Below are positions 318 to 16,370 of a stretch of 17,214 bases of DNA, one piece after another; positions within the stretch are counted from its first letter, which is position 1; every line of letters begins with the position of its first letter. Origin of the DNA: Candidatus Micrarchaeota archaeon (GTDB taxonomy: Archaea; Iainarchaeota; Iainarchaeia; JAADDC01); NCBI GenBank assembly GCA_027046625.1, contig JALTXX010000014.1, positions 28,129 to 45,342 on the forward strand, in the 5' to 3' direction. A program made the position numbers and the translations under genes. The notes below the pieces were generated by a model, which saw only the letters and a program-made list of their open reading frames with translations, searched no databases and was not told the DNA's origin.

Positions 318-1055
318 ATGCTGGAATACATTATATACAGGAAGGAGCGACTCCGTCCCTTCCTGTTCTTCCTTAGCGGAGTTTTCTATACCATAATTTC
401 GGGAGCAATATCACTCATCCTTTTCCCCGCCCATGCAAGTGTGTCTCATGTACTTCTTTCCTCCCTAGCAACAGCTCCCCTCATGTTTAGAGCAGTATCC
501 AGGGGTGCAAAAATTTTGAGTAGTTATCCAGACAGGGTGGGGTACGTGCAGCTATCCCTCATTGTGGTGTATGTGTACTTCCTTATTGGAACAATTGTGG
601 GATACCTTACTTCCTACTTCATATGGGGAGAGAAGTTATTTTACATACAAAAGGACGAAATAAACGCCATTAGAGGTGCTTTTGCAGGCGGAGATAAAAT
701 ACTATCCAACAATCTAACTGTATATCTTATTGGAACACTTCTATCCTTCATATATGGTACTGGAGGGGTGCTACTCATTAACTGGAACGGATCCCTTATA
801 GGGTATATGCTCTACCTTGAGATGCACAGCGGGAATCCTATAGGGCTGTTGTTAGGTATTCTTCCCCATGGAATATTTGAATTTCTTGGATACTTTATGG
901 GGGGTATCTCTGGTGTTATGATTGGGGTTTCTATCATTCAAAGGGGTTGGAGCGCTCCCCTTATCAGGGATACCATTATTTTCTTCGGAACCGGCATTAT
1001 ATTTATTGTTATAGGAGCCTTCATTGAGTCCCTTCTTTTATCACTTTCCTTATAA
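318..1055 (+). CDS. Polytopic membrane protein, probably DUF95/SpoIIM family (stage II sporulation protein M-like, COG1300-type).
   Basis: The 245-aa ORF has an ATG start and about six hydrophobic segments. The stretch NNLTVYLIGTLLSFIYGTGGVLLINWNGSLIG resembles the NNxxV...G...G...NG..lG core I remember for DUF95/SpoIIM proteins. The family call comes from memory, not a search. Confidence 0.5.
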   Translation: MLEYIIYRKERLRPFLFFLSGVFYTIISGAISLILFPAHASVSHVLLSSLATAPLMFRAVSRGAKILSSYPDRVGYVQLSLIVVYVYFLIGTIVGYLTSYFIWGEKLFYIQKDEINAIRGAFAGGDKILSNNLTVYLIGTLLSFIYGTGGVLLINWNGSLIGYMLYLEMHSGNPIGLLLGILPHGIFEFLGYFMGGISGVMIGVSIIQRGWSAPLIRDTIIFFGTGIIFIVIGAFIESLLLSLSL

Positions 1056-1947
1056 TATCCTCGTAACGTTTCAGATCCGCCTCAACCTTTTTGGGGGATA
1101 CCACACCACCCATGTAGGATGAGATTGCTTGTGCCAGAGAGGATAGGTCTAGGGGGTATATAATCTTCGTTGCTCGACCTTCTGCAAGTTTCTTTAATGC
1201 CTCCAGATAGAAGTATAGGAGCACTCTCTCATTCATATCCTTTGTAGCCTCCTTAATAGCCTCCAGCTCTATTTTGGTGGCTTCTGCTCTTTGGGCTCTC
1301 GCTACCCTTTCCTTTTCCGCAATTGTCATAGAATGCATGGCCTGTTTTATGGCTGGAGGAATATCTATATCCTTTATTTGCACAGAAACCACCTCAATAC
1401 CCCAGTCAATGGCTGTTTTTGAGAGCTCCTCCTTTAGCTTTTGGTTCAACTCGTCCACATTAGCTACTAGCTCCTCTATCTCCATAGAACCAACAAGATC
1501 CCTTATCATGGACTGAATAAACAGTCGTGATGCTTTCTTATAGTCATCCACCTTGAGTACTGCCTTAGCCGGATCCACCACCCTAAGATAGATGACAGCA
1601 TCTATCATAAGCACTATATTATCCTTTGTCATTACTTCCTGCTTTGGGACATCCACCGTCTGGGTTCTAAGATCCACCACTCTGTACGTTTCAATGTACG
1701 GTAGCACAACAATCCATCCAGGACCTCTAACCCCCACATATCTTCCAAACCTAAACACAACTGCTCTCTCATACTCCTTTAGCTGTATAAGAATATCTGT
1801 AGTCCAGATAATGAGCAAAAATAATCCTACCAGGATAGCTATTGCTCCGAGGATTACATCTTTTACTATTACTGCATAGGCTAATAGCCCCACAATCCCA
1901 AACACCAACAGAAGTATTGCACCGAACACGAGGACGTCCTTCGCCAC
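1021..1947 (-). CDS. SPFH / band 7 family protein (prokaryotic stomatin/prohibitin homolog) with two N-terminal transmembrane segments.
   Basis: The 308-aa ORF has two hydrophobic helices at the N-terminus. A typical stomatin core follows (RAVVFRFGRYVGVRGPGWIVVLPYIETYRVVDLRTQTVDVPKQEVMTKDNIVLMIDAVIYLRVVDP). The C-terminal half is Ala/Glu/Lys-rich and looks like a coiled coil (EKERVARAQRAEATKIELEA), as in p-stomatins such as PH1511. Confidence 0.85.
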   Translation of the reverse strand: MAKDVLVFGAILLLVFGIVGLLAYAVIVKDVILGAIAILVGLFLLIIWTTDILIQLKEYERAVVFRFGRYVGVRGPGWIVVLPYIETYRVVDLRTQTVDVPKQEVMTKDNIVLMIDAVIYLRVVDPAKAVLKVDDYKKASRLFIQSMIRDLVGSMEIEELVANVDELNQKLKEELSKTAIDWGIEVVSVQIKDIDIPPAIKQAMHSMTIAEKERVARAQRAEATKIELEAIKEATKDMNERVLLYFYLEALKKLAEGRATKIIYPLDLSSLAQAISSYMGGVVSPKKVEADLKRYEDIIRKVIKEGTQ

Positions 1948-1977
1948 CCTTATATTAGGGTTCCCTCTTTTTATAAG
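1948..1977. promoter_or_regulatory. 30-bp divergent intergenic spacer with two TATA-like elements, CCTTATATTAGG and CTTTTTATAAGG. It is a candidate bidirectional promoter for the stomatin gene (minus) and the DUF373 gene (plus).
   Basis: A/T-rich TATA-like boxes lie about 22-27 bp from the two divergent start codons. This spacing matches archaeal TATA/BRE promoters producing leaderless mRNA. The call rests on sequence pattern only. Confidence 0.3.
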
Positions 1978-3150
1978 GTGGCACTGCTGGTATTGGTAGT
2001 AGACAGAGATGACGACCTTGGAGTAAAGACCGGTATAAAAGGGCCTATACTGGGTAGAGAAGAGGCTTTGAAGGCAGCTAATGCACTTCTATTATCTGAT
2101 CCTGAGGATTCGGATGGAAACACCATTTTTGCTGCTATAAAGATAGCTGATGAGCTGAAAAAGGAGGGAGAAATAGTTCAGATAGCAGTCGTTACTGGAG
2201 ATAGGGATGTTGGCATAAGGGCAGATAAAACTATTAGGGAACAGATGAAGGAGATTTTTTCCAAGTATCAGTTTGATGGGATTGTATTTGTAACAGATGG
2301 AGCTGAAGATGACCAAGTAATCCCCATCATATCCTCCTTTGCTCCCATAGTATCAAAAAAGACTGTAGTAGTTAGACAGGCAAAAGAGTTAGAAAAAACT
2401 TTCTACACCGTAAAAACAGCCCTTGAAGATCCGTCTTTCGCCCGTATGTTCCTTGGTATACCTGGTATCATCCTCCTTCTCTGGTTTTTGCTCCAGGAAA
2501 ATGCTCTAAGAATCATAATAGGTATCTTAAGCATCTACCTTATTATAAGGGGATTTGGGCTGGAAGATACAGTTATGAGCATGGTACAATCTTTTCTGAG
2601 AGTAGATCCTCACTCTATATCCCTTCCCTTTCACCTAGCGTCCTTTGCCCTTATCATAATAGGAGTATTTTTGTCTATCCACACATCTACCTATGGAAGT
2701 ATAGTAGAGGCTGCTAGGTTGCTGTTATTTTTCTTCTGGGGAGCCTTTACTGTATTCCTCTTAGGAAAATCTGCGGAAGCCATCTCCCAGAAAAGAGCAT
2801 ACAAAATTGGAGATTATCTTGCCATTGGAGGGGCTATTACAGCCGGATATGTAATTGGAGATGGGCTGCTAAACATTGTAAGTGGTGTTTTTGGTCCTCT
2901 TCATATGGTTTTCATCTTTCTTGTTACTGTAATGGCTTACTACATTGTTTACAAGATATCTACTGTAATAAAAAGGGCTCCATTACTTTCAGAGAAGATA
3001 AAGGGAAAACCTGTATATGACAGGGTTGGCTCCCTCTTAGGAAGGGTAAAGGGTGTTGACGAAGATGTTCTCATCATAGAAAGGGGTAGAAGATATACAA
3101 GAGTTCCACTATCCCAAGTAAGGATCGTGGAGGGGAGGATTGTGATATGA
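1978..3150 (+). CDS. DUF373-like archaeal membrane protein. It has an N-terminal soluble domain of about 150 aa, a central polytopic membrane domain of about 6-7 TM segments, and a C-terminal PRC-barrel-like domain of about 55 aa.
   Basis: The 390-aa ORF has a GTG start at 1978 and an ATG alternative at 2554. The N-terminal stretch VLVVDRDDDLGVKTGIKGPILGREEALKAAN...IVFVTDGAEDDQVIP matches my recollection of the archaeal-specific DUF373 (PF04123) family. The C-terminal stretch GKPVYDRVGSLLGRVKGVDEDVLIIERGRRYTRVPLSQVRIVEGRIVI fits the PRC-barrel pattern G-x-x-V-x-D-x-x-G-x-x-LG-x-V-x-D. The stop codon overlaps the next gene's ATG in an ATGA motif. Confidence 0.6.
   Translation: MALLVLVVDRDDDLGVKTGIKGPILGREEALKAANALLLSDPEDSDGNTIFAAIKIADELKKEGEIVQIAVVTGDRDVGIRADKTIREQMKEIFSKYQFDGIVFVTDGAEDDQVIPIISSFAPIVSKKTVVVRQAKELEKTFYTVKTALEDPSFARMFLGIPGIILLLWFLLQENALRIIIGILSIYLIIRGFGLEDTVMSMVQSFLRVDPHSISLPFHLASFALIIIGVFLSIHTSTYGSIVEAARLLLFFFWGAFTVFLLGKSAEAISQKRAYKIGDYLAIGGAITAGYVIGDGLLNIVSGVFGPLHMVFIFLVTVMAYYIVYKISTVIKRAPLLSEKIKGKPVYDRVGSLLGRVKGVDEDVLIIERGRRYTRVPLSQVRIVEGRIVI
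3129..3138 (+). promoter_or_regulatory. Shine-Dalgarno sequence GGAGGGGAGG, 8 nt upstream of the ATG at 3147. It marks the downstream gene as an internal operon gene translationally coupled to the DUF373 gene.
   Basis: The sequence is complementary to the archaeal 16S rRNA 3' end (CCUCC). The spacing and the ATGA stop/start overlap at 3147-3150 support the call. Confidence 0.5.
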
Positions 3151-3833
3151 TTATCTTTGAAGGAAGATTTATCCCGATATGGCTCGTATTCTCCACTATC
3201 CTTGCCTCTGTGATCTACGTATCCCTTCCCTCTATGGAGTATGAGGCTCCTAGTGAACTACCCATTCTTATTCTGTTATTCATAATACTGTTTACCCTCT
3301 TCCTTTTGTGGGTGCTTCATCGCTATCCCCTTCTTTTGAAAGGATTGGAATACTTCATTCTCTCCCTTCTAGGATTATACATAACCAATCATCCCTTGGG
3401 CAGCCTCCTCCCTTTCCTCCTCCTTCTACACAAAAACCTCACCTATTCTATTGCAGCCGCATTCTCCTCCGCACTTATTGCATCCATGATGGATGTAAAG
3501 GCTGTGCTGCTGCTCTACACGCTGCTCTCTATTTACGATCTCATTGCAGTCTTCGTCACAAAACACATGGTAGACCTTGTGCATAAGCTGGGATACAGAG
3601 CGGGTGGAGATAAACCACTCCTTGGAGGTGGGGATATCATTATTCCTCTATCCTTCTCACTAAAATTACTAGATTTTGGTATTATTCCCTTTTTGTTATC
3701 CTTCTTTGGACATCTAATAGCAATATTACTCCTTCTATGGTATGTAAAAAGAGAAAAAGTGGCACTTCCGGCACTTCCCTTCACATTAACAGCTCAGATT
3801 GTCCCACTACTGTTCCTCTTACCCTACCTTTAA
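3147..3833 (+). CDS. Minimal presenilin / signal-peptide-peptidase family homolog. It is a GxGD-type intramembrane aspartyl protease (archaeal PSH-like) with about 9 short TM segments.
   Basis: The 228-aa ORF carries the three family motifs in the canonical order. The YD motif is SIYDLIAVFVTKHM (nt 3534-3539); compare human PS1 VYDLVAVL. The GxGD motif is LLGGGDIIIPLSF (Asp codon 3633-3635); compare SPP GLGDIVIPG. The PAL motif is KVALPALPFT (nt 3768-3776); compare PS1 PALP. Type IV prepilin peptidases also have GxGD but lack YD upstream and PAL downstream. Confidence 0.65.
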   Translation: MIIFEGRFIPIWLVFSTILASVIYVSLPSMEYEAPSELPILILLFIILFTLFLLWVLHRYPLLLKGLEYFILSLLGLYITNHPLGSLLPFLLLLHKNLTYSIAAAFSSALIASMMDVKAVLLLYTLLSIYDLIAVFVTKHMVDLVHKLGYRAGGDKPLLGGGDIIIPLSFSLKLLDFGIIPFLLSFFGHLIAILLLLWYVKREKVALPALPFTLTAQIVPLLFLLPYL

Positions 3834-4437
3834 GGGCATCTCTCACAACCTCTATTCGCTTCCCCACCACAACAATAGGGATAGAGGATCGTTTTGCCAA
3901 CAAAATAGATGGTATATCGAGGGGAAAATGGGATCCAGGACTTCCTATATCCTTTTCTATGGCCATCTTTAACAGTTCATCGTAGTCTATAGAAGGCATC
4001 ACCTTCCCATTTTCGTCATATATACCCTCCACGTTTGTTATGTTAATCACAACTCCTCCCACATACTCTGCTACGGATAGTGCGACAAAATCTGTGGTTA
4101 ATCCAGGTAGTATGCTACCCCCAAAGATGTTTATTCTGCCTTTTTCAAGGAAGGGGCCCTCATAGAGTTTTGGCTCTGTAGCCATCTCTCCAAGAGCAGC
4201 TTTAAACAACCACGCATTAAGCAGGGTTGCTCCTATCCCTACCATATCCTTTACTTGGTTATTATCCGAAAGTTTTGACACCGCTCCTATCATATTTCTA
4301 GCCAAGGGTCCTCCGCCCACCACAATGGCGGGGATCTTGTCCCTTTCCTCCCGGATAAGGGATGACAGTTTACTTACCCATTCAGTATCTGGGGGGTATC
4401 CTATGGTGGATCCTCCTATTGAGAGTACGGCCTTCAT
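3781..4437 (-). CDS. pyrH: Amino-acid-kinase-fold protein, most likely uridylate (UMP) kinase.
   Basis: The 218-aa ORF starts MKAVLSIGGS (compare KLSGE/IGGS of AAK-fold enzymes). IPAIVVGGGPLARN matches the UMPK VVxGGGNxxRG loop. PGLTTDFVALSVAEYVGGVVINITNVEGIYDENG matches PGxTTD...TNVDGVY. The size fits archaeal UMP kinases. The 3' end overlaps the convergent upstream gene by 53 bp. Confidence 0.65.
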   Translation of the reverse strand: MKAVLSIGGSTIGYPPDTEWVSKLSSLIREERDKIPAIVVGGGPLARNMIGAVSKLSDNNQVKDMVGIGATLLNAWLFKAALGEMATEPKLYEGPFLEKGRINIFGGSILPGLTTDFVALSVAEYVGGVVINITNVEGIYDENGKVMPSIDYDELLKMAIEKDIGSPGSHFPLDIPSILLAKRSSIPIVVVGKRIEVVRDALKGRVRGTVVGQSELLM

Positions 4438-5703: not shown

Positions 5704-7350
5704 ATGGAGGTGAAACTTCCCAGTGGAAGAAAGTTTACAACCCCGTCCTTCTTTCCCGTATACAATCCTAACATTCCCATTATATCTCCAAACGAAATGA
5801 GATCTATGGGTGTGGAGACGCTTATTACAAACGCGTACATACTCTATAAAAAAGGGATAGAAAGGAGGGTGCATGAATTTCTGGGATTTGATGGGGTAGT
5901 TATGATGGATTCTGGAGCTTACCAATTGTGGGAGTATGGAGACCTTGATGTTACAAACGAAGACATCATAGAGTACCAGAACCGTATTCTACCCGATATA
6001 GGAACCTTTCTCGATACGGTGATGGAGTACGATATAGACAGAAAGTCTGCCGAAATTGGTGTAAAGGAAACCCTAACAAACGCAGAGGTTTGTAGAGCAA
6101 TAGGAGATGATAAAATAGCATGGATGGCCACAGTACAGGGAGCATTGCATAAAGATCTTGTTGAAATAGCTGCAGAAAGGCTTAGGGAATTGGATTTTCC
6201 ATACTATGCCATTGGCAGTCTTAAAAAGTCTACACAGAAGTGGATGTTTGAGCCTCAGATAGATCATAGCGTGTGGGCTCTGAATATTCTACCAAGGAGC
6301 AAGCCTGTTCATCTTTGGGGTGTTGGGCATCCTGCAGTATTTTCCATCTTTGTACTAATGGGATTTGATACCTTTGATTCCGCTTCCTACGCCCTTTATG
6401 CAAAAGATAACAGAGTTATGTTTCCTTGGGGCACAGAGAGACTGGAAAACATGGAAGAATTCCCCTATACATGCAAAGAGTGTGAAAAATTTACGGTTAA
6501 AGAGCTTCTATCTATGGATAAACACGAAAGGGTACGTATACTTGCAAAACACAATCTGTGGGTCATGATAAACGAGATAAAGGCTATTAGAGAGGCTCTT
6601 AGAGGTGAGTATCTCTTCGAGCTTGTACAGGAAAGGGTTAGATCACACCCAGGATTATTCAGGGCATTTGTAAAGCTGCTAAAAGAACATTATGGGTTTT
6701 TGGAGCAATATACCCCTTTCACAAAGAAACATGGGTTATTCCCAGTAGGCGAAGAATTTGTCTATAGACCAGAGATAAAAAGAGCTCTTGATAGAATAAA
6801 AATGTGGGAAAAAGATGCGAAGATTTTAGGTATAGAAATACCCTCCACCCTTTTCTATACATATCCTTTTGGGCACATTGTACACGAGGGGTCTCCTCCA
6901 TCCATCGATCCTACATCTCAAGCAAGAGATATCATAAAATATCAATGGGGTGTAGAGATAGAGCATTTGTACGTTACTGAGAGAAAAGGGAGGGCTAGAA
7001 TGGTATACAAAGATGAAACATACATTGGCATGATCAGACCGTCTGATGGGCTTTTTGTTCCCTCCATAGAGGGTGCCAAACTTTTGGTATCTCTTCTTCC
7101 CCATCCAAAAGGCAGAATAGTGGTAGATAGTGTTGCAGAAGGTCCCGTATCGGAGGGTAGGTCCGTATTTTCAAAGTTTGTTCTGGATGTAGACCCTGAT
7201 CTTAGACCAAACCAAGAGGTTATCGTAGTAAATGAAAGCGATGAAGTGCTAGCAGTGGGGAAGTTGGTGCTATCACCTAAAGAGATTACAGAGTTTTCCT
7301 CCCACGTAGCAGTAAAAGTCAGACATGGCTCAAAACTTTCACATTCTTAA
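5704..7350 (+). CDS. tgtA: Archaeosine tRNA-guanine transglycosylase (archaeal-type TGT) with a C-terminal PUA-like domain.
   Basis: The 548-aa size fits archaeal TGT. The TGT catalytic-region motif is VVMMDSGAYQLW. The zinc site is C-x-C-x2-C ... H (YTCKECEKF...H). The C-terminal roughly 80 aa look beta-rich and PUA-like (GKLVLSPKEITEFSSHVAVKVRHG). An SD-like GGTGCAGGAAG precedes the ATG, 32 bp after the aRF1 stop. Confidence 0.85.
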   Translation: MEVKLPSGRKFTTPSFFPVYNPNIPIISPNEMRSMGVETLITNAYILYKKGIERRVHEFLGFDGVVMMDSGAYQLWEYGDLDVTNEDIIEYQNRILPDIGTFLDTVMEYDIDRKSAEIGVKETLTNAEVCRAIGDDKIAWMATVQGALHKDLVEIAAERLRELDFPYYAIGSLKKSTQKWMFEPQIDHSVWALNILPRSKPVHLWGVGHPAVFSIFVLMGFDTFDSASYALYAKDNRVMFPWGTERLENMEEFPYTCKECEKFTVKELLSMDKHERVRILAKHNLWVMINEIKAIREALRGEYLFELVQERVRSHPGLFRAFVKLLKEHYGFLEQYTPFTKKHGLFPVGEEFVYRPEIKRALDRIKMWEKDAKILGIEIPSTLFYTYPFGHIVHEGSPPSIDPTSQARDIIKYQWGVEIEHLYVTERKGRARMVYKDETYIGMIRPSDGLFVPSIEGAKLLVSLLPHPKGRIVVDSVAEGPVSEGRSVFSKFVLDVDPDLRPNQEVIVVNESDEVLAVGKLVLSPKEITEFSSHVAVKVRHGSKLSHS

Positions 7351-7759
7351 GAATGATTTCCTTGCCCTTAACCTTATCCTCAATAGCAACCTTTGCATCC
7401 TCCTCTATCATCCTTATAATACCTTCCAAGGTGGTTATCCTGCCCCCAAAACCTTCCCTCATCTCCAGTACTATACCCATATCTGGAACTTCTATCCTTG
7501 CATATGGAGGGATGTATATCAGTGTATTTGATGTTTTTTCATCATAAACGAATCTTTTTTCTTCTAGTTTTTCATCGACCGAGAATACAGTTCTATCAAC
7601 AAATCCACAATTACTACACTTCTCCACAAACATTACGACACTACCTTCCAAATATTGCAAAGGATATAAGAACGCCTCTATCTTTGTTTCTGATCCGCAC
7701 ACAGGGCACTTCCCCTTTCCCTCATATAGTTTTTTCACCACATAGAGGCATATATCCAC
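7319..7759 (-). CDS. ZPR1-type zinc-finger protein (COG1779-like C4 zinc finger).
   Basis: The 146-aa ORF has CPVCG...x22...CSNCGF followed by a beta-rich region ending GFGGRITTLEGIIRMI, which matches the ZPR1 signature G.GG..TT.EGLL. The ORF opens with GTG at 7759. In-frame GTGs at 7741 or 7738 are better placed relative to the TATA-like box, so the true start is uncertain by 6-7 codons. Confidence 0.5.
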   Translation of the reverse strand: MDICLYVVKKLYEGKGKCPVCGSETKIEAFLYPLQYLEGSVVMFVEKCSNCGFVDRTVFSVDEKLEEKRFVYDEKTSNTLIYIPPYARIEVPDMGIVLEMREGFGGRITTLEGIIRMIEEDAKVAIEDKVKGKEIILKNVKVLSHV

Positions 7760-7794
7760 AGGGTTTTAAGTACTCTCCCAGCAAACTATGTGGG
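7760..7794. promoter_or_regulatory. 35-bp divergent spacer containing a near-palindromic TATA-like box GTTTTAAGTAC (7763-7773), about 27 bp upstream of the reverse gyrase ATG at 7795.
   Basis: It is the only A/T-rich element in the spacer. It is correctly spaced for leaderless rgy transcription and could also serve the divergent ZPR1 gene if that gene starts at GTG 7741/7738. Confidence 0.35.
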
Positions 7795-10700
7795 ATGAAG
7801 GCCCTCTTCACCAACCTCTGCCCCAACTGTAGAGGGGAAATAGACGACTCAAGACTGGAAAAACACCTTCCATGTAAAAGATGTTTGACCGATGAGGTGG
7901 AAGAAGGGAATTATAACACATTAGTAAAGACGGTGTTCTCTCATTTAAAGAATAAAGATGGGTATACACTCATATACAATACTGTAAATGGATTAGAGGA
8001 ATTCGAAGCATTCTTTAAGAAGTACACCGGTTATCCTTTGTGGAGTGCTCAGCGCTCATGGACAAAGCGCTTGCTACTAAACAAATCATTTTCTATTGTG
8101 GCGCCAACTGGTGTGGGAAAATCGCTCTTTGGAACCATGTATGCAGCCTTTTTAGCAGAAAAGGGCAAAAGATCTTACATTATCGTTCCTACCTCCACAC
8201 TGGTAAAACAAACACTGGATAGACTGTCCTTCAGGGAAGATGCGATTGGATTCTACTCTGCCATGACTCAGAAGAGAAAGGAGGAAATAATGGAACGTTT
8301 AAGGAGTGGGGATTTCCGTATTTTGGTTACCACCTCGCAGTTTCTGGCTCGTCGCTTTGAAGACATTCCTGTAAAGTTCGACTTCATCTTTGTAGATGAC
8401 GTAGATGCGCTCCTTAAATCCTCTAAGAATATAGATAGGGTGCTTTTATTACTAGGATTTCAAGAAAAGGACATAGAAACTGCCCTTTCCCTTATAAGGG
8501 AAAAGATACTCCTGGCTAGAGGAAAAGGGGACAGAAAAAAGGTTGAACACCTCGAAAAGATCCTAAAGAAAAGGAAAAAAGATATAAAAGGATCTCTTGT
8601 TGTTGCATCAGCTACAGGTAGATCTAGAGGGTTAAGATCAAGGTTGTTTAGAGAGTTGCTTGATTTTGAGGTGGGCTCCTCTAGGGCTCAGCTAAGGAAT
8701 GTGATTAACGTTTATACAAAAGAAGATGACATATCCTACTGGATAAGAAGGTTAGGTGGTGGAGGAATCATATTCGTATCCCACGGAGAAGACGAAGCAA
8801 AACGGATTACCGATGAGTTAAACAATATTGGAATAAGAGCTGCCTTCGCAGGGGGAGAAAAAGCCGTAAGTGCACTTGAGTCATTCGCAAAGGGGGAAGT
8901 TGATATACTTGTAGGATCTGCCTACTACTATGGAACCCTTGTAAGGGGCATCGACCTGCCGGAAAGAGTAAGGTATACCGTATTTGTGGGTGTCCCCAAG
9001 TTTAGGTTTGGTATGGACTTCGAAGGAATAAATCCTGGGAGAGCTGCCTTTCTTCTGGATATACTATATGACATAACATCTGATTCCTCTCTGAGAACCT
9101 TGGCAAACAGGCTTAGAAGATACGCAAGGGAGGAGGATCTGGAGGAGGCAAAGAAGATGCTAAGGGAGCTTATATCTAAGAGGGAAATCCTTGACAAGCT
9201 AAAGGAGCATCCAGATATAGTAATAGAAGAGGGAGATAAGTTATACATCATTATCCCCGATTACAAAACATATATCCAAGGCTCTGGAAGAGCCTCAAGA
9301 ATGTATGCAGGTGGAGTAACCACGGGGTTATCGCTGCTAATAGTGGACAATGAAAAGGTGTTTGAGCTGTTAAGACGTATTCTGTTCAACGTGTATGGAG
9401 AATCGTTCTCCCCTGTGAAAGAAGTAAACCTTGAGGATATCCTAAGAAAGATTGACGAAGAACGAAGGAGGATTAGGGAAAGATCCTGGAAGGATCCTGT
9501 AAGAACAATATTATTCGTGGTAGAATCCCCCAACAAAGCAAGAACAATAGCAAGATTCTTTGGGAGGCCGTCTGTGTACAGAATAGGAAGTATTAGAGGC
9601 TATGAGGTTACCACAGGAGATACAATTGTAAACGTGGTGGCAACGAGAGGGCACATGTTTGACCTGGTAACAGATAGAGGATTTCATGGTGTGCTGGTAA
9701 ACGATAGGATAATACCCGTTTATACTACCATCAAACGATGCAATCAATGTGGTACACAAACTACAGATAATGTGTGCCCAAAATGTGGAAGTACAGACCT
9801 AGAAGATGCCATAGAGAGGGTTAATGCGTTGAGATTGTTTGCTCTTGAGATGGATGAGGTCCTCATAGGTACAGATCCAGATACGGAAGGTGAAAAGATT
9901 GCATGGGATGTAATGCTAGCTATATCTCCCTATAATCCATCCATTAAAAGATCTGAGTTCCACGAGGTTACAAAGAACGCCCTCCTAAAGGCTATAAGGG
10001 AGCCCAGATCCTTTAATATAAACAGGGTAGATGCCCAGATTGTAAGAAGGGTTGAAGATCGGTGGATAGGTTTTGAGCTATCCCAAAAGCTGTGGACTGT
10101 TTTTGGCAACAGAGGGCTCTCCGCTGGAAGGGTTCAAACACCTGTACTTGGATGGATCATTGAGAGATATATGGAGCACAAGAAACAGGTAGCGGTGTTC
10201 CTTTCTGTAGATACAGAGGTTGGCAGATTCGTATTTGAAACACCTTTCAGAAATATAAACCAAGCAAAAGCTTATGGTAACAGTGGTATTATACGGATAG
10301 AACTATTGGAAAGTAGAGAGGAGATCAAACACCCACCTCCACCCTTTACTACAGACACCCTTATAAGGGATGGGGGTAATGTTCTACGTCTCGGGGCCAA
10401 GGAGATTATGGATCTTGCCCAAGATCTCTTCGAGGCAGGTCTTATAACATACCATAGAACCGATTCTACTCACGTATCCTCTACCGGAATAGCCATTGCA
10501 AAGGAGTATATATCCTCCAAATGGGGAGAAGATTACTTTAGGGGCAGATCATGGGGCAGAGAAGGAGCTCACGAATGTATAAGGCCTACACGGTCCCTTG
10601 ATACAGAGACGTTAATTAGATACATAAGGGAGGGAGAAATAGTGGTGGAGGGTATCAGCAAGCAGCACCTAAGGCTATACGATCTTATCTTTAGGAGATT

Positions 10701-11220
10701 TATGGAAAGCCAGATGAAGGAGGCGAAGGTAATTGTTTCAAAGTACAGAGTTACACTAGAGGCACTATCCACAGAAGAAGAGAGGATATCAGATATAGTG
10801 GAAAGGGGGTGGATGGTTCTGGAGAACATCGAACCATCACCCCTAAAGGAGGGAGCGTATAAACCTCTTTCTGTTTTATCCTACAAGGCATCTAAGATAC
10901 CACTATATACCCAAAGTGATGTAGTGGCCCTCATGAAGGAGAGGGGCATAGGCAGGCCGTCTACATACGCCACCATCCTACAAAAGCTACTAGAAAGAAG
11001 ATACATAATAGAAACTAAAAGTAAGCGCAGATTGTATCCTACAAGAAGGGGTATAGAAGTGTTTAACTACCTCAACTCGAAGTTCTACGATCTTGTTTCC
11101 GAGGAAAGAACAAAGATGTTAGAAATGCTCATGGAGGAGATTGAGGAAGGAAGGTTACATTATATGGATGTACTTAAGGAACTCTACAGGGAGATAGTAT
11201 CAACAAGGGGGATTATATAG
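7795..11220 (+). CDS. rgy: Reverse gyrase: N-terminal zinc finger plus SF2 helicase-like domain fused to a type IA topoisomerase domain.
   Basis: I place the start at ATG 7795 (MKALFTNLCPNCRGE...CKRCL, the N-terminal zinc finger), giving 1141 aa. Walker A is APTGVGKS and helicase motif II is FVDDVD. A second zinc finger, CNQCG...CPKCG, lies at the helicase/topoisomerase junction. The topo IA active-site region GLITYHRTDSTHVS keeps the catalytic Tyr, and the Toprim acidic motif GTDPDTEGE is present. No intein is evident. The ORF track's upstream extension (7498-7794) overlaps the ZPR1 gene and carries no conserved residues. Confidence 0.95.
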   Translation: MKALFTNLCPNCRGEIDDSRLEKHLPCKRCLTDEVEEGNYNTLVKTVFSHLKNKDGYTLIYNTVNGLEEFEAFFKKYTGYPLWSAQRSWTKRLLLNKSFSIVAPTGVGKSLFGTMYAAFLAEKGKRSYIIVPTSTLVKQTLDRLSFREDAIGFYSAMTQKRKEEIMERLRSGDFRILVTTSQFLARRFEDIPVKFDFIFVDDVDALLKSSKNIDRVLLLLGFQEKDIETALSLIREKILLARGKGDRKKVEHLEKILKKRKKDIKGSLVVASATGRSRGLRSRLFRELLDFEVGSSRAQLRNVINVYTKEDDISYWIRRLGGGGIIFVSHGEDEAKRITDELNNIGIRAAFAGGEKAVSALESFAKGEVDILVGSAYYYGTLVRGIDLPERVRYTVFVGVPKFRFGMDFEGINPGRAAFLLDILYDITSDSSLRTLANRLRRYAREEDLEEAKKMLRELISKREILDKLKEHPDIVIEEGDKLYIIIPDYKTYIQGSGRASRMYAGGVTTGLSLLIVDNEKVFELLRRILFNVYGESFSPVKEVNLEDILRKIDEERRRIRERSWKDPVRTILFVVESPNKARTIARFFGRPSVYRIGSIRGYEVTTGDTIVNVVATRGHMFDLVTDRGFHGVLVNDRIIPVYTTIKRCNQCGTQTTDNVCPKCGSTDLEDAIERVNALRLFALEMDEVLIGTDPDTEGEKIAWDVMLAISPYNPSIKRSEFHEVTKNALLKAIREPRSFNINRVDAQIVRRVEDRWIGFELSQKLWTVFGNRGLSAGRVQTPVLGWIIERYMEHKKQVAVFLSVDTEVGRFVFETPFRNINQAKAYGNSGIIRIELLESREEIKHPPPPFTTDTLIRDGGNVLRLGAKEIMDLAQDLFEAGLITYHRTDSTHVSSTGIAIAKEYISSKWGEDYFRGRSWGREGAHECIRPTRSLDTETLIRYIREGEIVVEGISKQHLRLYDLIFRRFMESQMKEAKVIVSKYRVTLEALSTEEERISDIVERGWMVLENIEPSPLKEGAYKPLSVLSYKASKIPLYTQSDVVALMKERGIGRPSTYATILQKLLERRYIIETKSKRRLYPTRRGIEVFNYLNSKFYDLVSEERTKMLEMLMEEIEEGRLHYMDVLKELYREIVSTRGII

Positions 11221-12162: not shown

Positions 12163-12210
12163 GCTCCACCTCCATCAAAATAAATGGTGTACGTTTAGAA
12201 TATAACCTTG
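12163..12210. promoter_or_regulatory. 48-bp divergent spacer between the Mut7-C gene (minus) and rad50 (plus). It contains TCAAAATAAATGG (about 27 bp upstream of the rad50 ATG) and TTTAGAATATAA.
   Basis: The A/T-rich TATA-like boxes are spaced as expected for leaderless starts. No SD precedes rad50. Confidence 0.3.
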
Positions 12211-14772
12211 ATGATCCGTGAAGTCCACATTAAAAACTGGAAGTCCCATGGAGAAATAAATGGAAATTACGGCAGTTCTCTGTCATTTGAAAGGGGACTG
12301 AACGTTATATATGGTGTTAACGGTAGCGGGAAAAGTTCTATAGCCGAAGCCATACACTTCGCTCTTTTTGGGAAAAGGGGAGACGATGTTATCAGAAGAG
12401 GTGCTAAGAAGGCGGAGGTAAAAGTAGTTCTTGAAACGGATAATGTATACATTATAAAGAGGAGTTTGGGTCGAGGGGGGAGCGATGACGTTGTCGTAAT
12501 GACTGAGGATGGTAAGCTTCTTTCTGTTTCTAAGCAAAGGGATGCTAATAAGACGGTAGAGGACATCTTAGGCGTTAATGCAAAGCTGTTTGAGAAGGCT
12601 GTATACGGGGAACAAAACAAGATGTTGGAGTTCTATGAAAGTTCTCCCAAGGAGAGGGCCAAGATGATAGACGACATTATGGGTATGAAAGAGTTTTTTG
12701 AGGCAAAGGAGGTAATAACTAGAATATATAACAGGCTTTTGGATGAGATACGCCAGAAGGGTGATAAATTAACAGACTACAAAAAGGAAGAGGAGGAACT
12801 AAAGACATCCATTTCCAAAGAGGAGGAGAAGGTGTCCTCGCTTAGGGAAAGAGTAATGGAATTAACTTCTATGGTTGAATCGTTATCCTCCTCAGAGGAA
12901 AAGCTAAAGAAGGAGCTCTCAGAACTTGAAGTAAATCTTAGATCCCTTGAAGAGAAGAGAGAAAAGTATATCACACTATCTGCCCAGGTAAAACGGTTAA
13001 AGGAAGAGATAAAGTGGCCTGACGCGTCTGAAAAGGATGAAGATATGCTTCAGGAACTTCTCTCTAAGATGGAGAAGAAAAAGTCTCTGGAGGGAACTAT
13101 AAACCACCTAAAAAGCAGGAGAGAAAGGATTCTCAAAGAATTGGAAAGCATCCCAGAGGCAGAAGAGGTTGATATGGAGAGATTAAAAAAAGAATTGGAA
13201 GAAAAGGAGTATATACTAAGAGAGATAGAGGATAAACATAATGGTATAAGGAAGGAGCTTTATTCTTTGGAGATAAACATCTCTTCCCTGAAGGAGGAGC
13301 TAAAGCACCTACTAATGAAGGAAGAAGAGTATAAGCGACTGTCCTCTGAAGTTAATGAGCTTCCTTTCCTGAAAGATAGGCTGGAAAGCCTCACAGAAAA
13401 CCTTGAAGAGTTAAGATCGGTTGAGGAGGAGTTAAAAAGTCGTATATCGGTACTTAAGCAGTCTCACCTACTGAAAGAAGGCCGGTGCCCCCTCTGTGGA
13501 AGGAGTATCGACAAAGTACATGCAGAGGAGATAATAGCACATAGAGAAGAGGAGCTGAAGAAGTTACAAAATGAGTTGGAAGCTGTCCTCGCAAAAAGAA
13601 AGGTTATGGAGAGGGAATACAACGATGTCCATCGAAGAGTTTTGGCCTTAGAGGTTAAGCAGGACAGATTAAAGGATTTAAAAGACCAGCTGTCAAATAA
13701 AGAGGACATAAAAAGAAAAATAGAAGAAAGTGATAGAAGATTGAAAGAATTGGGGGAAATGCTCTCACGTATCGAAGAGGAAAAGAGCCGTATATCGTCC
13801 TTGGTAGAAGCATTAAGAAAACGGCTTTCCGACGCCATAAACACACTCAATATTATAAACAGGAAACGCTCCCTTCAGCAAGAGCTGCTAGAGGTTGAGA
13901 AAGAAATAGAGAAAACGGAACATTCATTAAAAGAGTTGGGAGACATAGACGCACAAACAATAGAGAGATACAGGGAAAGGGTGGAGAGTTACAGGAAAAA
14001 GCTTCAGCTAGAAGCTCTAGAGAAACAATTATCATCCCTACAATGGGATGAAAGAGAATATAACAATATGAAAAGTAGGGTGGAAGCGGTTAGAAAGGAA
14101 TTTTTAGAGTTGGTTTCCAAGAAGAAGGAGCTGGAAGGAACCCTAAAGGGCCTTCAGGAAACATTAAGAGAAAAGGAAAAATTGCTAGAGGAGATGAAAA
14201 GACGGTTAGCCATTTTGGAAGATGAGTTAAGAGATTATGAAAGGCTAAAAACTATAAGGGACAGTCTTGAACTTGTAAGAAGGGCGTGGGAAGAAAGTAT
14301 AAAAGAGGTTAGGAAGAGGAGGGTGGACCTCATTAATAAAACCGTAAAACTGGTGTGGAATGCCGTCTACAGATCTCAGTATTCCGACTATAAGGACATA
14401 TCTTTCTCCATGGAAAGTGCACGGTCTGGATATACCTACTCCCTCAAGGTAAAAGGGGATGAGTGGTACGATGTAGATGTGTTGTCTGGTGGAGAACGTA
14501 TGCTAGCCTTACTAGCTCTTCGGATAGCCATGGCTTATCTTCTCAGCAAAAAGAGCGGTTTCCTCATCCTTGACGAACCTACCCACAACCTTGACGAAAA
14601 CATTAGTAGAAAGTTGGCTGAATTTCTTCACAACACAACCCAAGAGGGTCTCTTTGATCAAATCATTCTTATTACCCATGATCCTGTATTCTCTGAGTAT
14701 GCAGACGTTGTATATCGTATGGAGAGAGCCAAAACCGGCAACGATCCCACCACAGTTGTTAGAGAACGTTAG
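12211..14772 (+). CDS. rad50: DNA double-strand-break repair ATPase Rad50 (SMC-like ABC ATPase with a central zinc hook).
   Basis: I place the start at ATG 12211, giving 853 aa; the track begins at TTG 12208. Walker A is GVNGSGKSS. Q-loop region is present. A long heptad-rich E/K/L coiled coil follows. The CPLCG zinc hook lies exactly at the midpoint (nt 13486-13500, residues 426-430). The ABC signature LSGGE (VLSGGERMLALLAL) is present. Walker B/D-loop is FLILDEPTHNLD and the H-loop is LITHD. Confidence 0.85.
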   Translation: MIREVHIKNWKSHGEINGNYGSSLSFERGLNVIYGVNGSGKSSIAEAIHFALFGKRGDDVIRRGAKKAEVKVVLETDNVYIIKRSLGRGGSDDVVVMTEDGKLLSVSKQRDANKTVEDILGVNAKLFEKAVYGEQNKMLEFYESSPKERAKMIDDIMGMKEFFEAKEVITRIYNRLLDEIRQKGDKLTDYKKEEEELKTSISKEEEKVSSLRERVMELTSMVESLSSSEEKLKKELSELEVNLRSLEEKREKYITLSAQVKRLKEEIKWPDASEKDEDMLQELLSKMEKKKSLEGTINHLKSRRERILKELESIPEAEEVDMERLKKELEEKEYILREIEDKHNGIRKELYSLEINISSLKEELKHLLMKEEEYKRLSSEVNELPFLKDRLESLTENLEELRSVEEELKSRISVLKQSHLLKEGRCPLCGRSIDKVHAEEIIAHREEELKKLQNELEAVLAKRKVMEREYNDVHRRVLALEVKQDRLKDLKDQLSNKEDIKRKIEESDRRLKELGEMLSRIEEEKSRISSLVEALRKRLSDAINTLNIINRKRSLQQELLEVEKEIEKTEHSLKELGDIDAQTIERYRERVESYRKKLQLEALEKQLSSLQWDEREYNNMKSRVEAVRKEFLELVSKKKELEGTLKGLQETLREKEKLLEEMKRRLAILEDELRDYERLKTIRDSLELVRRAWEESIKEVRKRRVDLINKTVKLVWNAVYRSQYSDYKDISFSMESARSGYTYSLKVKGDEWYDVDVLSGGERMLALLALRIAMAYLLSKKSGFLILDEPTHNLDENISRKLAEFLHNTTQEGLFDQIILITHDPVFSEYADVVYRMERAKTGNDPTTVVRER

Positions 14773-16370
14773 GCTACTCTCTCTTCCGGTCCAAATCCAT
14801 ATGAGAAGTCTGTGGACGGACCCATGCCTATATAATCAAGGTACATCCTAACCGTAAAGTAGTTTTGGTAGTCTAGCACTGCACTACCAAACACTGTATA
14901 CTTTTGCTGGGTGGGCAGTATAACACCAAATCTAAGGTTTGAGTTGGAGGTAGTAATATACTCCTTTACATCGCTGGCTGTTCTATATCTACAATTCTTG
15001 GTATCTACGTAGTATCTATAGCACACTGCCCTCGTAAGCTCTTCTCCAGATGAGCTGTTTGTTATATTGAAGACCTCGCTAGTTACAAGGTCTCTAGGAA
15101 AGCTCCCACCTATACCCATTACTACATTACACACATCCATACTCCACCAATCTATCTTGACGTTTCTTATCCTGCATGTGGATGAGCTATATGAAGCCCC
15201 CTTCGCTCCATATCCTATACTCTTATTTGCAAAGAGGGCAGTAGCTTTGTAAGTATGGATGTACGTACCGTAGCTTCTGACAGTTCTATAATCTCCACGT
15301 CCGCTCTCTACCCTTCCGGAGTATACAATGAGGGGATTTCTTATGGGAACGGTTGGCTTCATAATGTAATATCTCCACGTCGGATACGTGTTGGTAAACT
15401 GAACTCCATTGTATACATAACTGTAAGTATCCCTGCTTCTATACAACGTAACATCAAAGTATAACCTTCCGTTTCTAATATAATAGGAGGCACTCCCTTC
15501 CCCAAGCTCCTCTATATTGGATTCGTTGAGTTCCAAGGTGAAACCATTAATGGTTCTTCCGCTGAAATCCTCATACACATCAAAAACATTTTTTGGGTTT
15601 GATATGGAGGTAGCGGATGGATTTCCATAGTATACGTAGAAGAAGGTGGTACCTCCCTTCTTTAAGGTTGATCTGAGAAATATTCTCGTGTTTGAGAGAC
15701 ACGTTCCAGGTAATATCCACATGGGTACTTCCTGTCCTCTTTCGTCGAGGACTCTTAGATCTCCACAGTCGCTCCGTATCTTCCTCTCATTATAGAGGGC
15801 TCTAGTGTTAAGGTCGATGTAGAACACTACATCTCCACCTTTATTACTATAAACCAACAAGGCCTTCCTGTATTTCCACCCAGATACGGCAGTTTTATAA
15901 ACTGTGGCAGCAGAGCAGCTGCCAACTTCCCTAGACCCTATATGAACCACAGCACAAATGTTGTACTCCCCTTCATTATTCACAGTGTAGCTTCTACTTA
16001 ACGTTTGGGGAGCGATGGTACCGTTCTCTATGAGCTGATCATTAACGTATATGGAGTAGTTTACCTCCTCTCCATCAGAAAGAATAACAACATTGTAATC
16101 TATTGAAACAGGGAAGGATTCGGTAGAAACGTATTCTGGAGATTCCACTATTACATAGATATAACTAAATAACATGCTTTTCGGTATGGTAAAGTTTATA
16201 TCTACCGTATAATCTCTTAAAACATCAAAATTTACCTCTGTAGTACTAGGAGTCGACACTTCTTGAGATATAGCTTCTAAGGTATTGAGAAGGGCGGTAC
16301 CTGTCACAGTTACCAGTATGATGGATGCTCCCAATAAGAGGAGGTACTCCACATTGGTTTGACCGTACAC
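14769..16370 (-). CDS. Type-IV-pilin-like surface protein (class III signal peptide followed by an N-terminal hydrophobic helix) with a large extracellular domain containing a DUF2341-like, ConA-like region.
   Basis: The 533-aa ORF has a GTG start directly after an in-frame TAG. Its N-terminus (M/V)YG|QTNVEYLLLLGASIILVTVTGTALL fits the prepilin pattern: Gly at -1, Gln at +1, Glu at +5, then a hydrophobic helix of about 20 aa. The remainder is S/T/Y/N-rich and beta-like. The segment DCGDLRVLDERGQEVPMWILPG...TTFFYVYYGNPSATS resembles the DUF2341 core (DG.DiRF.d.dG..L.yeiE.W...vWVkvp...ttiymYYGN). Confidence 0.5.
   Translation of the reverse strand: MYGQTNVEYLLLLGASIILVTVTGTALLNTLEAISQEVSTPSTTEVNFDVLRDYTVDINFTIPKSMLFSYIYVIVESPEYVSTESFPVSIDYNVVILSDGEEVNYSIYVNDQLIENGTIAPQTLSRSYTVNNEGEYNICAVVHIGSREVGSCSAATVYKTAVSGWKYRKALLVYSNKGGDVVFYIDLNTRALYNERKIRSDCGDLRVLDERGQEVPMWILPGTCLSNTRIFLRSTLKKGGTTFFYVYYGNPSATSISNPKNVFDVYEDFSGRTINGFTLELNESNIEELGEGSASYYIRNGRLYFDVTLYRSRDTYSYVYNGVQFTNTYPTWRYYIMKPTVPIRNPLIVYSGRVESGRGDYRTVRSYGTYIHTYKATALFANKSIGYGAKGASYSSSTCRIRNVKIDWWSMDVCNVVMGIGGSFPRDLVTSEVFNITNSSSGEELTRAVCYRYYVDTKNCRYRTASDVKEYITTSNSNLRFGVILPTQQKYTVFGSAVLDYQNYFTVRMYLDYIGMGPSTDFSYGFGPEERVA

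Follow-up and report, generated by a model that had tools for sequence, protein, structure and literature searches.

The window analyzed here, a 17,214-nucleotide (nt) stretch of contig JALTXX010000014.1 from a Candidatus Micrarchaeota archaeon (assembly GCA_027046625.1), carries two co-directional genes joined by a stop/start overlap. The stretch matches contig WANZ01000027.1 of assembly GCA_015521515.1. The first gene encodes a DUF373 family membrane protein of 390 amino acids (aa) with a GTG start (1978..3150, plus strand), and the second a divergent short presenilin homolog (PSH) of 228 aa with an ATG start (3147..3833, plus strand), predicted to be a nine-helix intramembrane aspartyl protease of family A22. 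Both open reading frames (ORFs) are present as described in a first-pass annotation, which read their junction as the sign of an obligately co-translated pair and saw in it a candidate for a two-component membrane proteolysis module. We consider it likely that the pair is instead a lineage-specific bicistron of a compact thermophilic DPANN genome, encoding two independently acting proteins, and not an instance of a general DUF373-PSH partnership. The adjacency would have arisen once in the ancestor of a single clade and then persisted as inherited gene order. PSH would act as an autonomous intramembrane aspartyl protease, on the model of the Methanoculleus PSH, and probably clears signal-peptide or transmembrane remnants, while DUF373 would have a membrane function separate from that of PSH. 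The Methanoculleus enzyme is reportedly active without cofactors.

Distribution of the gene pair

The frequency of the adjacency was assessed from both sides of the pair. A forward scan with a DUF373 profile against GTDB species representatives gave 80 loci with 4-kb flanks, in which PSH-like ORFs were sought with a local PSH hidden Markov model (HMM). A PSH-like ORF stands next to DUF373 in only two of these loci (L002 and L003), and none was found within 4 kb in the remaining 78. Both exceptions carry the closest DUF373 relatives (51-54% identity) and have the same 4-nt overlap. A reverse scan with a PSH profile against metagenomes gave another 80 loci, 45 of them with at least 1.3 kb of sequence upstream of PSH; among these 45, DUF373 lies upstream in three (L082, L084 and L104) and is absent upstream in 42. 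L168/L169 and L170, found by looking up two further close relatives of PSH, likewise have PSH downstream of DUF373. Pair-bearing loci number eight in all, from vent or DPANN metagenome-assembled genomes (MAGs). Conservation of the adjacency therefore fails in every lineage except one, and an obligate two-component module is not supported.

Phylogeny and gene order agree on how the pair came about. Of the 85 DUF373 sequences placed in a neighbor-joining tree, seven are from pair-bearing loci, and these group in one exclusive clade. In loci with flanking sequence, the genes around the pair are usually conserved as well: the whole block SpoIIM-SPFH-DUF373-PSH-pyrH-aRF1-TGT is found in L002, L003 and L082, the order DUF373-PSH-pyrH-aRF1-TGT-ZPR1 in L170, and SpoIIM, SPFH, DUF373, PSH and pyrH are retained in L168. 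Even the unrelated aRF1-TGT pair is kept in L002, L003, L082 and L170, with a 4-nt overlap of its own in L082. Given the exclusive DUF373 clade and the conserved surroundings of the pair, the adjacency is, on these comparisons, one evolutionary event passed on by descent. Repeated independent co-localization across lineages, the pattern sought as a sign that DUF373 is a PSH subunit, was not found in the scans; all occurrences fall in one monophyletic clade. The DUF373 neighborhoods of Thermococcus and other archaea are unrelated. Two other DPANN PSH loci (L162 and L163), whose PSH genes are only distantly related, share opposite-strand downstream genes for SepF, UPF0147, prefoldin beta and ribosomal protein L37ae, which is a different conserved PSH context in those lineages.

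The stop/start overlap and the case for a complex

The stop of the DUF373 gene and the start of the PSH gene share an ATGA at 3147..3150 on the plus strand (ATG 3147-3149, TGA 3148-3150), a -4 nt overlap, and a Shine-Dalgarno (SD)-like GGAGGGGAGG lies within the 3′-terminal part of the DUF373 gene at 3129..3138 (plus strand), with an 8-nt spacer to ATG 3147. The first-pass annotation had noted both elements correctly. Geometry indicative of translational coupling has been defined as a spacing of -8..+10 nt between genes on one strand, mostly with a common ATGA or TGATG (PMC10666635), and the ATGA at 3147-3150 gives the DUF373-PSH pair exactly this arrangement. Experiments in both archaea and bacteria have demonstrated that overlaps of this kind couple the translation of the two genes (PMC6728339, PMC10666635). 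The ATGA pairs of H. volcanii and E. coli studied by Huber et al. 2019/2023 have the same -4 overlap and an SD inside the upstream gene; coupling was measured there, whereas the window pair is known from its sequence geometry. Among the relatives, an ATGA or GTGA overlap is also present in L002, L003, L168 and L170, an apparent 8-nt overlap in L082 and L084 (where the start call is uncertain) and a 3-nt gap in L104.

A plausible course of expression can be drawn from this layout. The TATA-like box at 1950-1957 would drive a leaderless mRNA that begins near GTG 1978, and DUF373 would be translated from the 5′ end of this bicistronic message. Ribosomes terminating at TGA 3148-3150 would then reinitiate at ATG 3147, so that DUF373 and PSH would be co-expressed. 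Co-expression is likely from the sequence arrangement; the overlap does not imply a partnership.

How much the junction says about function depends on how common such junctions are. In the gene tables of the window contig and three DPANN PSH loci, 11 of 30 same-strand neighbor pairs, about one third, lie at -8..+10 nt. The DUF373/PSH overlap is thus real but not exceptional, since about a third of same-strand pairs are equally close. The description of the junction as a co-translation signature stands for its geometry, which couples translation in other species. PSH genes of other DPANN abut or overlap various unrelated genes upstream: a metallophosphoesterase gene and an nSTAND3-like gene at -4 nt each, and genes for a tRNA-binding-domain protein and a PEP synthase at +1 nt each. 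Where DPANN genes are packed this closely, a stop/start overlap says little about partnership, and the case calls for caution with partnerships read from overlaps in compact genomes. The SD-like motif was also considered as a signal significant on its own and was rejected, as GGAGG occurs 50 times on the plus strand of the 17-kb window and the motif overlaps the codons of the conserved C-terminal V-E-G-R of DUF373. Within the clade the motif is strong in L002 and weak in L003, L082 and L104.

Several observations weigh against two independent proteins. The tight junction has been kept across divergence, being -4 or near zero in all eight pair-bearing loci although DUF373 identity is 34-55%; between sub-clades, identity is 34-41% for DUF373 and 27-37% for PSH. 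The pair also survives altered flanks, with an Obg-like GTPase gene in place of pyrH in L104 and, in L168, one more gene on the upstream side and RFC on the downstream side. The PSH proteins of the clade form a distinct, fast-evolving short subfamily (228-260 aa) with a shared MI[LI]F[KE]G-like N-terminus, which is compatible with adaptation to a partner. The prior for an interaction is not trivial either, because 45% of pairs at -8..+10 nt in H. volcanii and 30% in E. coli encode subunits of heteromeric complexes, which leaves 55-70% of pairs this close that do not (PMC10666635). All of this could be accommodated if, within the clade, DUF373 were a true accessory, regulatory or substrate-recruiting subunit of the shortened PSH, and translational coupling would then secure 1:1 synthesis and co-translational assembly. 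We regard this as unlikely, since the adjacency arose only once in evolution and functionally unrelated surrounding genes are equally well conserved. In other DPANN the genes that PSH overlaps are unrelated ones, many DUF373 genes have no PSH beside them, the clade does not conserve the SD and the Methanoculleus PSH is reportedly active alone. It is no likelier that one thermophilic vent DPANN lineage has gained, for its shortened PSH, DUF373 as a dedicated co-translated partner whose PRC-barrel and acidic cytoplasmic domains recruit or gate substrates. If a partnership were true, the control of presenilin-type proteases by accessory subunits could be studied in a simple prokaryotic model. No prokaryotic presenilin with such a subunit would have preceded it, and DUF373 would gain its first functional clue.

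The comparison with gamma-secretase, on which the idea of a multi-subunit enzyme had leaned, can be made only in part. Its catalytic subunit has a fold and motifs like those of the window PSH, as judged by profile matches to presenilin-1 and -2 and by structure, and it requires three accessory subunits, nicastrin, APH-1 and PEN-2. No homologs of these subunits were found here, and DUF373 resembles none of the three. Likewise, comparative evidence that an archaeal PSH requires a partner was not found in the loci compared, and no test result supports a gamma-secretase-like assembly.

The two encoded proteins

The 228-aa protein escapes the standard family models. PF06550 scores 20.9 bits, below its cut-off of 23.9, and the NCBIfam PSH model NF041679 scores 23.5 bits, far under its cut-off of 125, with matching limited to aa 104-145. 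At the sequence level the protein is a near-orphan: a word-index search with it alone returned 8 distant matches, and an exhaustive search returned 71, of which 3 were below 1e-10, including the query itself. The catalytic and structural motifs of the family are nevertheless complete. The first catalytic Asp, in the YD motif, is encoded by the Y130-D131 codons at 3534..3539 (plus strand, within YDLIAVFVTKHM), falls in predicted helix 117-138 and is invariant in alignments A2 and A3, in which the protein is aligned with PF06550 proteins. The second catalytic Asp, in the GxGD motif, is encoded by the G160-G-G-D163 codons at 3624..3635 (plus strand), with G160, G162 and D163 invariant, and the PAL motif by the P208-A-L-P211 codons at 3768..3779 (plus strand), with A209 and P211 invariant and P208 invariant in A2 and nearly so in A3. 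All 20 members of A2 match PF06550, and all three motifs are intact in 6/6 clade members checked.

Profile and structure searches point the same way. A family profile that includes the 228-aa protein finds the PSH structures 4HYC/4HYG in the PDB with E 8e-33, and presenilin-1 and -2 with E ~1e-11. The AlphaFold2 (AF2) model has nine helices, a predicted local distance difference test score (pLDDT) of 83.4 and a predicted TM-score (pTM) of 0.80, and the top 24 Foldseek matches to it in the PDB are all PSH, SPPL2a or presenilin, at a best TM-score of 0.71. The model is less confident around the fourth transmembrane segment (TM4), a short one with pLDDT 66-69 in its region. Membership in A22 is supported despite the failed cut-offs because the motifs are intact, the profile matches PSH structures and the predicted fold agrees. 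The earlier assignment to the presenilin/signal peptide peptidase family by HMM thus fails at the Pfam and NCBIfam thresholds and holds by motifs, profile and model; sequence comparison and modeling give good support for a new member of the PSH/A22 family that is divergent and unusually compact.

Compactness is the most distinctive property of the protein. With 228 aa it is the shortest complete member among those compared, against 241-260 aa in its clade relatives and 255-322 aa (median 282) for 66 complete metagenomic PSH ORFs, so 'minimal presenilin-like protease' was a fair description. Its N-terminal MIIFEGRF aligns with the MILFKG of the clade relatives. The closest experimentally solved counterpart is the Methanoculleus marisnigri PSH (MCMJR1; 4HYC/4HYG/4Y6K; PF06550, MEROPS A22), which has the YD, GxGD and PAL motifs in common with it and is likewise encoded as a single polypeptide. 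The two align at TM-scores of 0.71/0.67 and 24% identity, and the profile E of 8e-33 refers to this enzyme. The M. marisnigri protein has 301 aa, and the loss of size in the window PSH lies in much shorter loops TM1-TM2, TM4-TM5 and TM6-TM7, together with a very short TM4. Unlike its counterpart, the window PSH stays under the Pfam and NCBIfam thresholds, and its protease activity is predicted from sequence. Archaeal A22 proteases are still listed as having no known physiological role (PMC9263693). The window PSH documents an unusually compact presenilin homolog, with motifs intact, that standard HMM thresholds miss.

The protein also evolves far faster than the products of adjacent genes. Compared with L002 and L003, PSH identity is 27-28% (phmmer E 1e-13 to 1e-17), whereas DUF373 is 51-54% identical and SPFH and aRF1 match with E 1e-131 to 1e-220. 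This rapid change, the scores under both sets of cut-offs, the shortness and the reduced TM4 region at low pLDDT could also describe a decaying or non-catalytic presenilin relic, whose overlap with DUF373 would be an accident of gene erosion. We hold this to be very improbable, as the catalytic and structural motifs are intact in every clade member checked, the reading frame is uninterrupted, the N-terminus is conserved and the presenilin fold is predicted with confidence.

By its sequence, the product of the first gene is an ordinary PF04123 protein of the long form. The DUF373 identity was confirmed by HMM search, with E 6.6e-82 and 276.1 bits against a gathering cut-off of 28.3, over protein aa 3-316 and profile positions 2-320 of 335, and PF04123 is matched by all 26 aligned homologs. 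DUF373 is a widespread archaeal family, with at least 1081 homologs at E<=1e-5; the MAGs that hold the closest relatives bear the labels Ca. Iainarchaeum, Micrarchaeota or Diapherotrites and are all DPANN. In the deposited annotation the gene begins at TTG 1993, five codons downstream of GTG 1978, and encodes 385 aa. GTG 1978 is the better start because L4 is near-invariant in the family alignment, which has the N-terminal consensus LVLxVDRDDDLG.

The AF2 model of the DUF373 protein (pLDDT 87.3) has three parts. An acidic alpha/beta domain forms the N-terminus (aa 1-130), helices make up the membrane region (aa 136-337), and the C-terminus is a beta-barrel with strands predicted at aa 345-389. 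The invariant N-terminal residues D9, D11, D13, K17, D41, D46, N48, D107, G108 and D111 suggest a metal- or ligand-binding site in aa 1-130 (1978-2367). The Foldseek neighbors of this domain are CARF proteins (Csx1-Crn2, Csm6) only, at a non-significant E of ~0.01. The PRC-barrel tail proposed earlier (aa 340-390, 2995..3147, plus strand) scores 17.7 bits with PF05239, under the gathering score of 21.2, and its match to the PRC-like MTH1895 structure 1pm3 is weak and not significant (E 0.33). Of the 26 family members, on the other hand, 12 match PRC at E<=0.01, the best of them at 1.4e-5, and the barrel in the model agrees; the tail is likely PRC-like by these comparisons. Profile and structure searches of the PDB with the DUF373 protein gave no significant solved-structure match, and NCBIfam has no model for the family. 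We found no functional study of DUF373 and no paper assigning it a function. The sole specific mention in the literature is of a DUF373 protein co-migrating with ammonia monooxygenase in N. viennensis.

Promoter region and neighboring genes

Upstream, the DUF373 gene faces a divergent gene of the SPFH/Band-7 family (stomatin/HflKC-like; 1021..1947, minus strand; PF01145, E 8.9e-46), and the two start codons are 30 nt apart (1948-1977). This short region holds a TATA-like box, TTATATTA, at 1950..1957 (plus strand), ~25 nt upstream of GTG 1978, and a second A/T box, TTTATAA, at 1970-1976, ~25 nt from the SPFH start, which would serve SPFH on the minus strand; both are putative promoter elements. 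The same layout of A/T boxes recurs in the 30-35 nt SPFH/DUF373 intergenic region of L002, L003 and L082. It suggests back-to-back promoters for two leaderless mRNAs, one for SPFH and one for DUF373.

SPFH is directly upstream and divergent in 37 of the 78 other DUF373 loci, and also in L167 and L168, which makes it the neighbor of long-form DUF373 with the widest conservation, and SpoIIM often lies beyond SPFH at long-form DUF373 loci. A membrane LonB gene is downstream and convergent in 29 of the 78, and the slot that LonB holds elsewhere is taken by PSH-pyrH in the clade of the window. The SPFH-bearing long-form loci (L004-L043, L055, L068, L167 and L168) come from Iainarchaeia/Micrarchaeia-type MAGs. 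The SPFH/DUF373/LonB neighborhood is far more widespread than the DUF373-PSH pair. The SPFH and LonB context weakly hints at a membrane-proteostasis theme for DUF373, and the function of DUF373 may be better approached through this neighborhood.

One could take this further and propose that the real partner of long-form DUF373 is the divergent SPFH/stomatin-like protein, PSH being merely the latest protease gene in the downstream slot of a membrane-proteostasis neighborhood (SPFH, LonB and here PSH) that resembles the NfeD-stomatin arrangement. The likeness has some substance. In stomatin (SPFH)-NfeD operons and HflK/C-FtsH modules, SPFH adjoins genes for membrane proteins or proteases, as it does here, and in short NfeD proteins a small beta-barrel follows a polytopic membrane region at the C-terminus, a combination also predicted for DUF373. 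Beyond the frequency of SPFH and LonB at DUF373 loci, the back-to-back A/T boxes of the 30-35 nt intergenic region point to a bidirectional promoter common to both genes. We nevertheless consider an SPFH partner quite unlikely. The SPFH-adjacent loci all belong to Iainarchaeia/Micrarchaeia-type DPANN, so that the adjacency may itself be inherited synteny, and short-form DUF373 genes of other archaea lack SPFH neighbors. SPFH is divergent here and not co-transcribed, whereas NfeD-stomatin pairs are usually co-operonic. The likeness is one of neighborhood, and a Pfam scan found no NfeD or ClpP-like domain in DUF373. A conserved downstream partner of short-form DUF373 was considered too and rejected, the ~355-aa ORFs in Thermococcus (L165) and in L166 not being homologous.

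Downstream, the PSH gene converges on an archaeal UMP kinase gene (pyrH; 3781..4437, minus strand; TIGR02076, E 2.2e-34, and PF00696). The 3′ ends overlap by 53 nt (3781-3833), as compared with ~38-44 nt in L002, L003, L168 and L170.

Farther along, a reverse gyrase gene at 7761-11220 encodes zf_Rg, helicase, Toprim and topoisomerase domains and is a marker of (hyper)thermophily. The contig also carries aRF1, an archaeosine TGT and an SMC/Rad50-like gene, and with reverse gyrase these indicate that it comes from a thermophilic archaeon. The closest relatives are of hydrothermal origin, with which reverse gyrase agrees. No tRNA genes were found in the window. A small ORF at 7319-7759 (minus strand) has a weak match to the ZPR1 jelly-roll (E 3.4e-4, below cut-off), and in L170 a ZPR1 zinc-ribbon gene follows TGT in the syntenic position. 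Finally, a 533-aa DUF2341 ORF (14769-16370, minus strand) converges on the SMC/Rad50-like gene (12208-14772, plus strand) with a 4-nt overlap of the stop regions, another example of extreme gene packing in the window.

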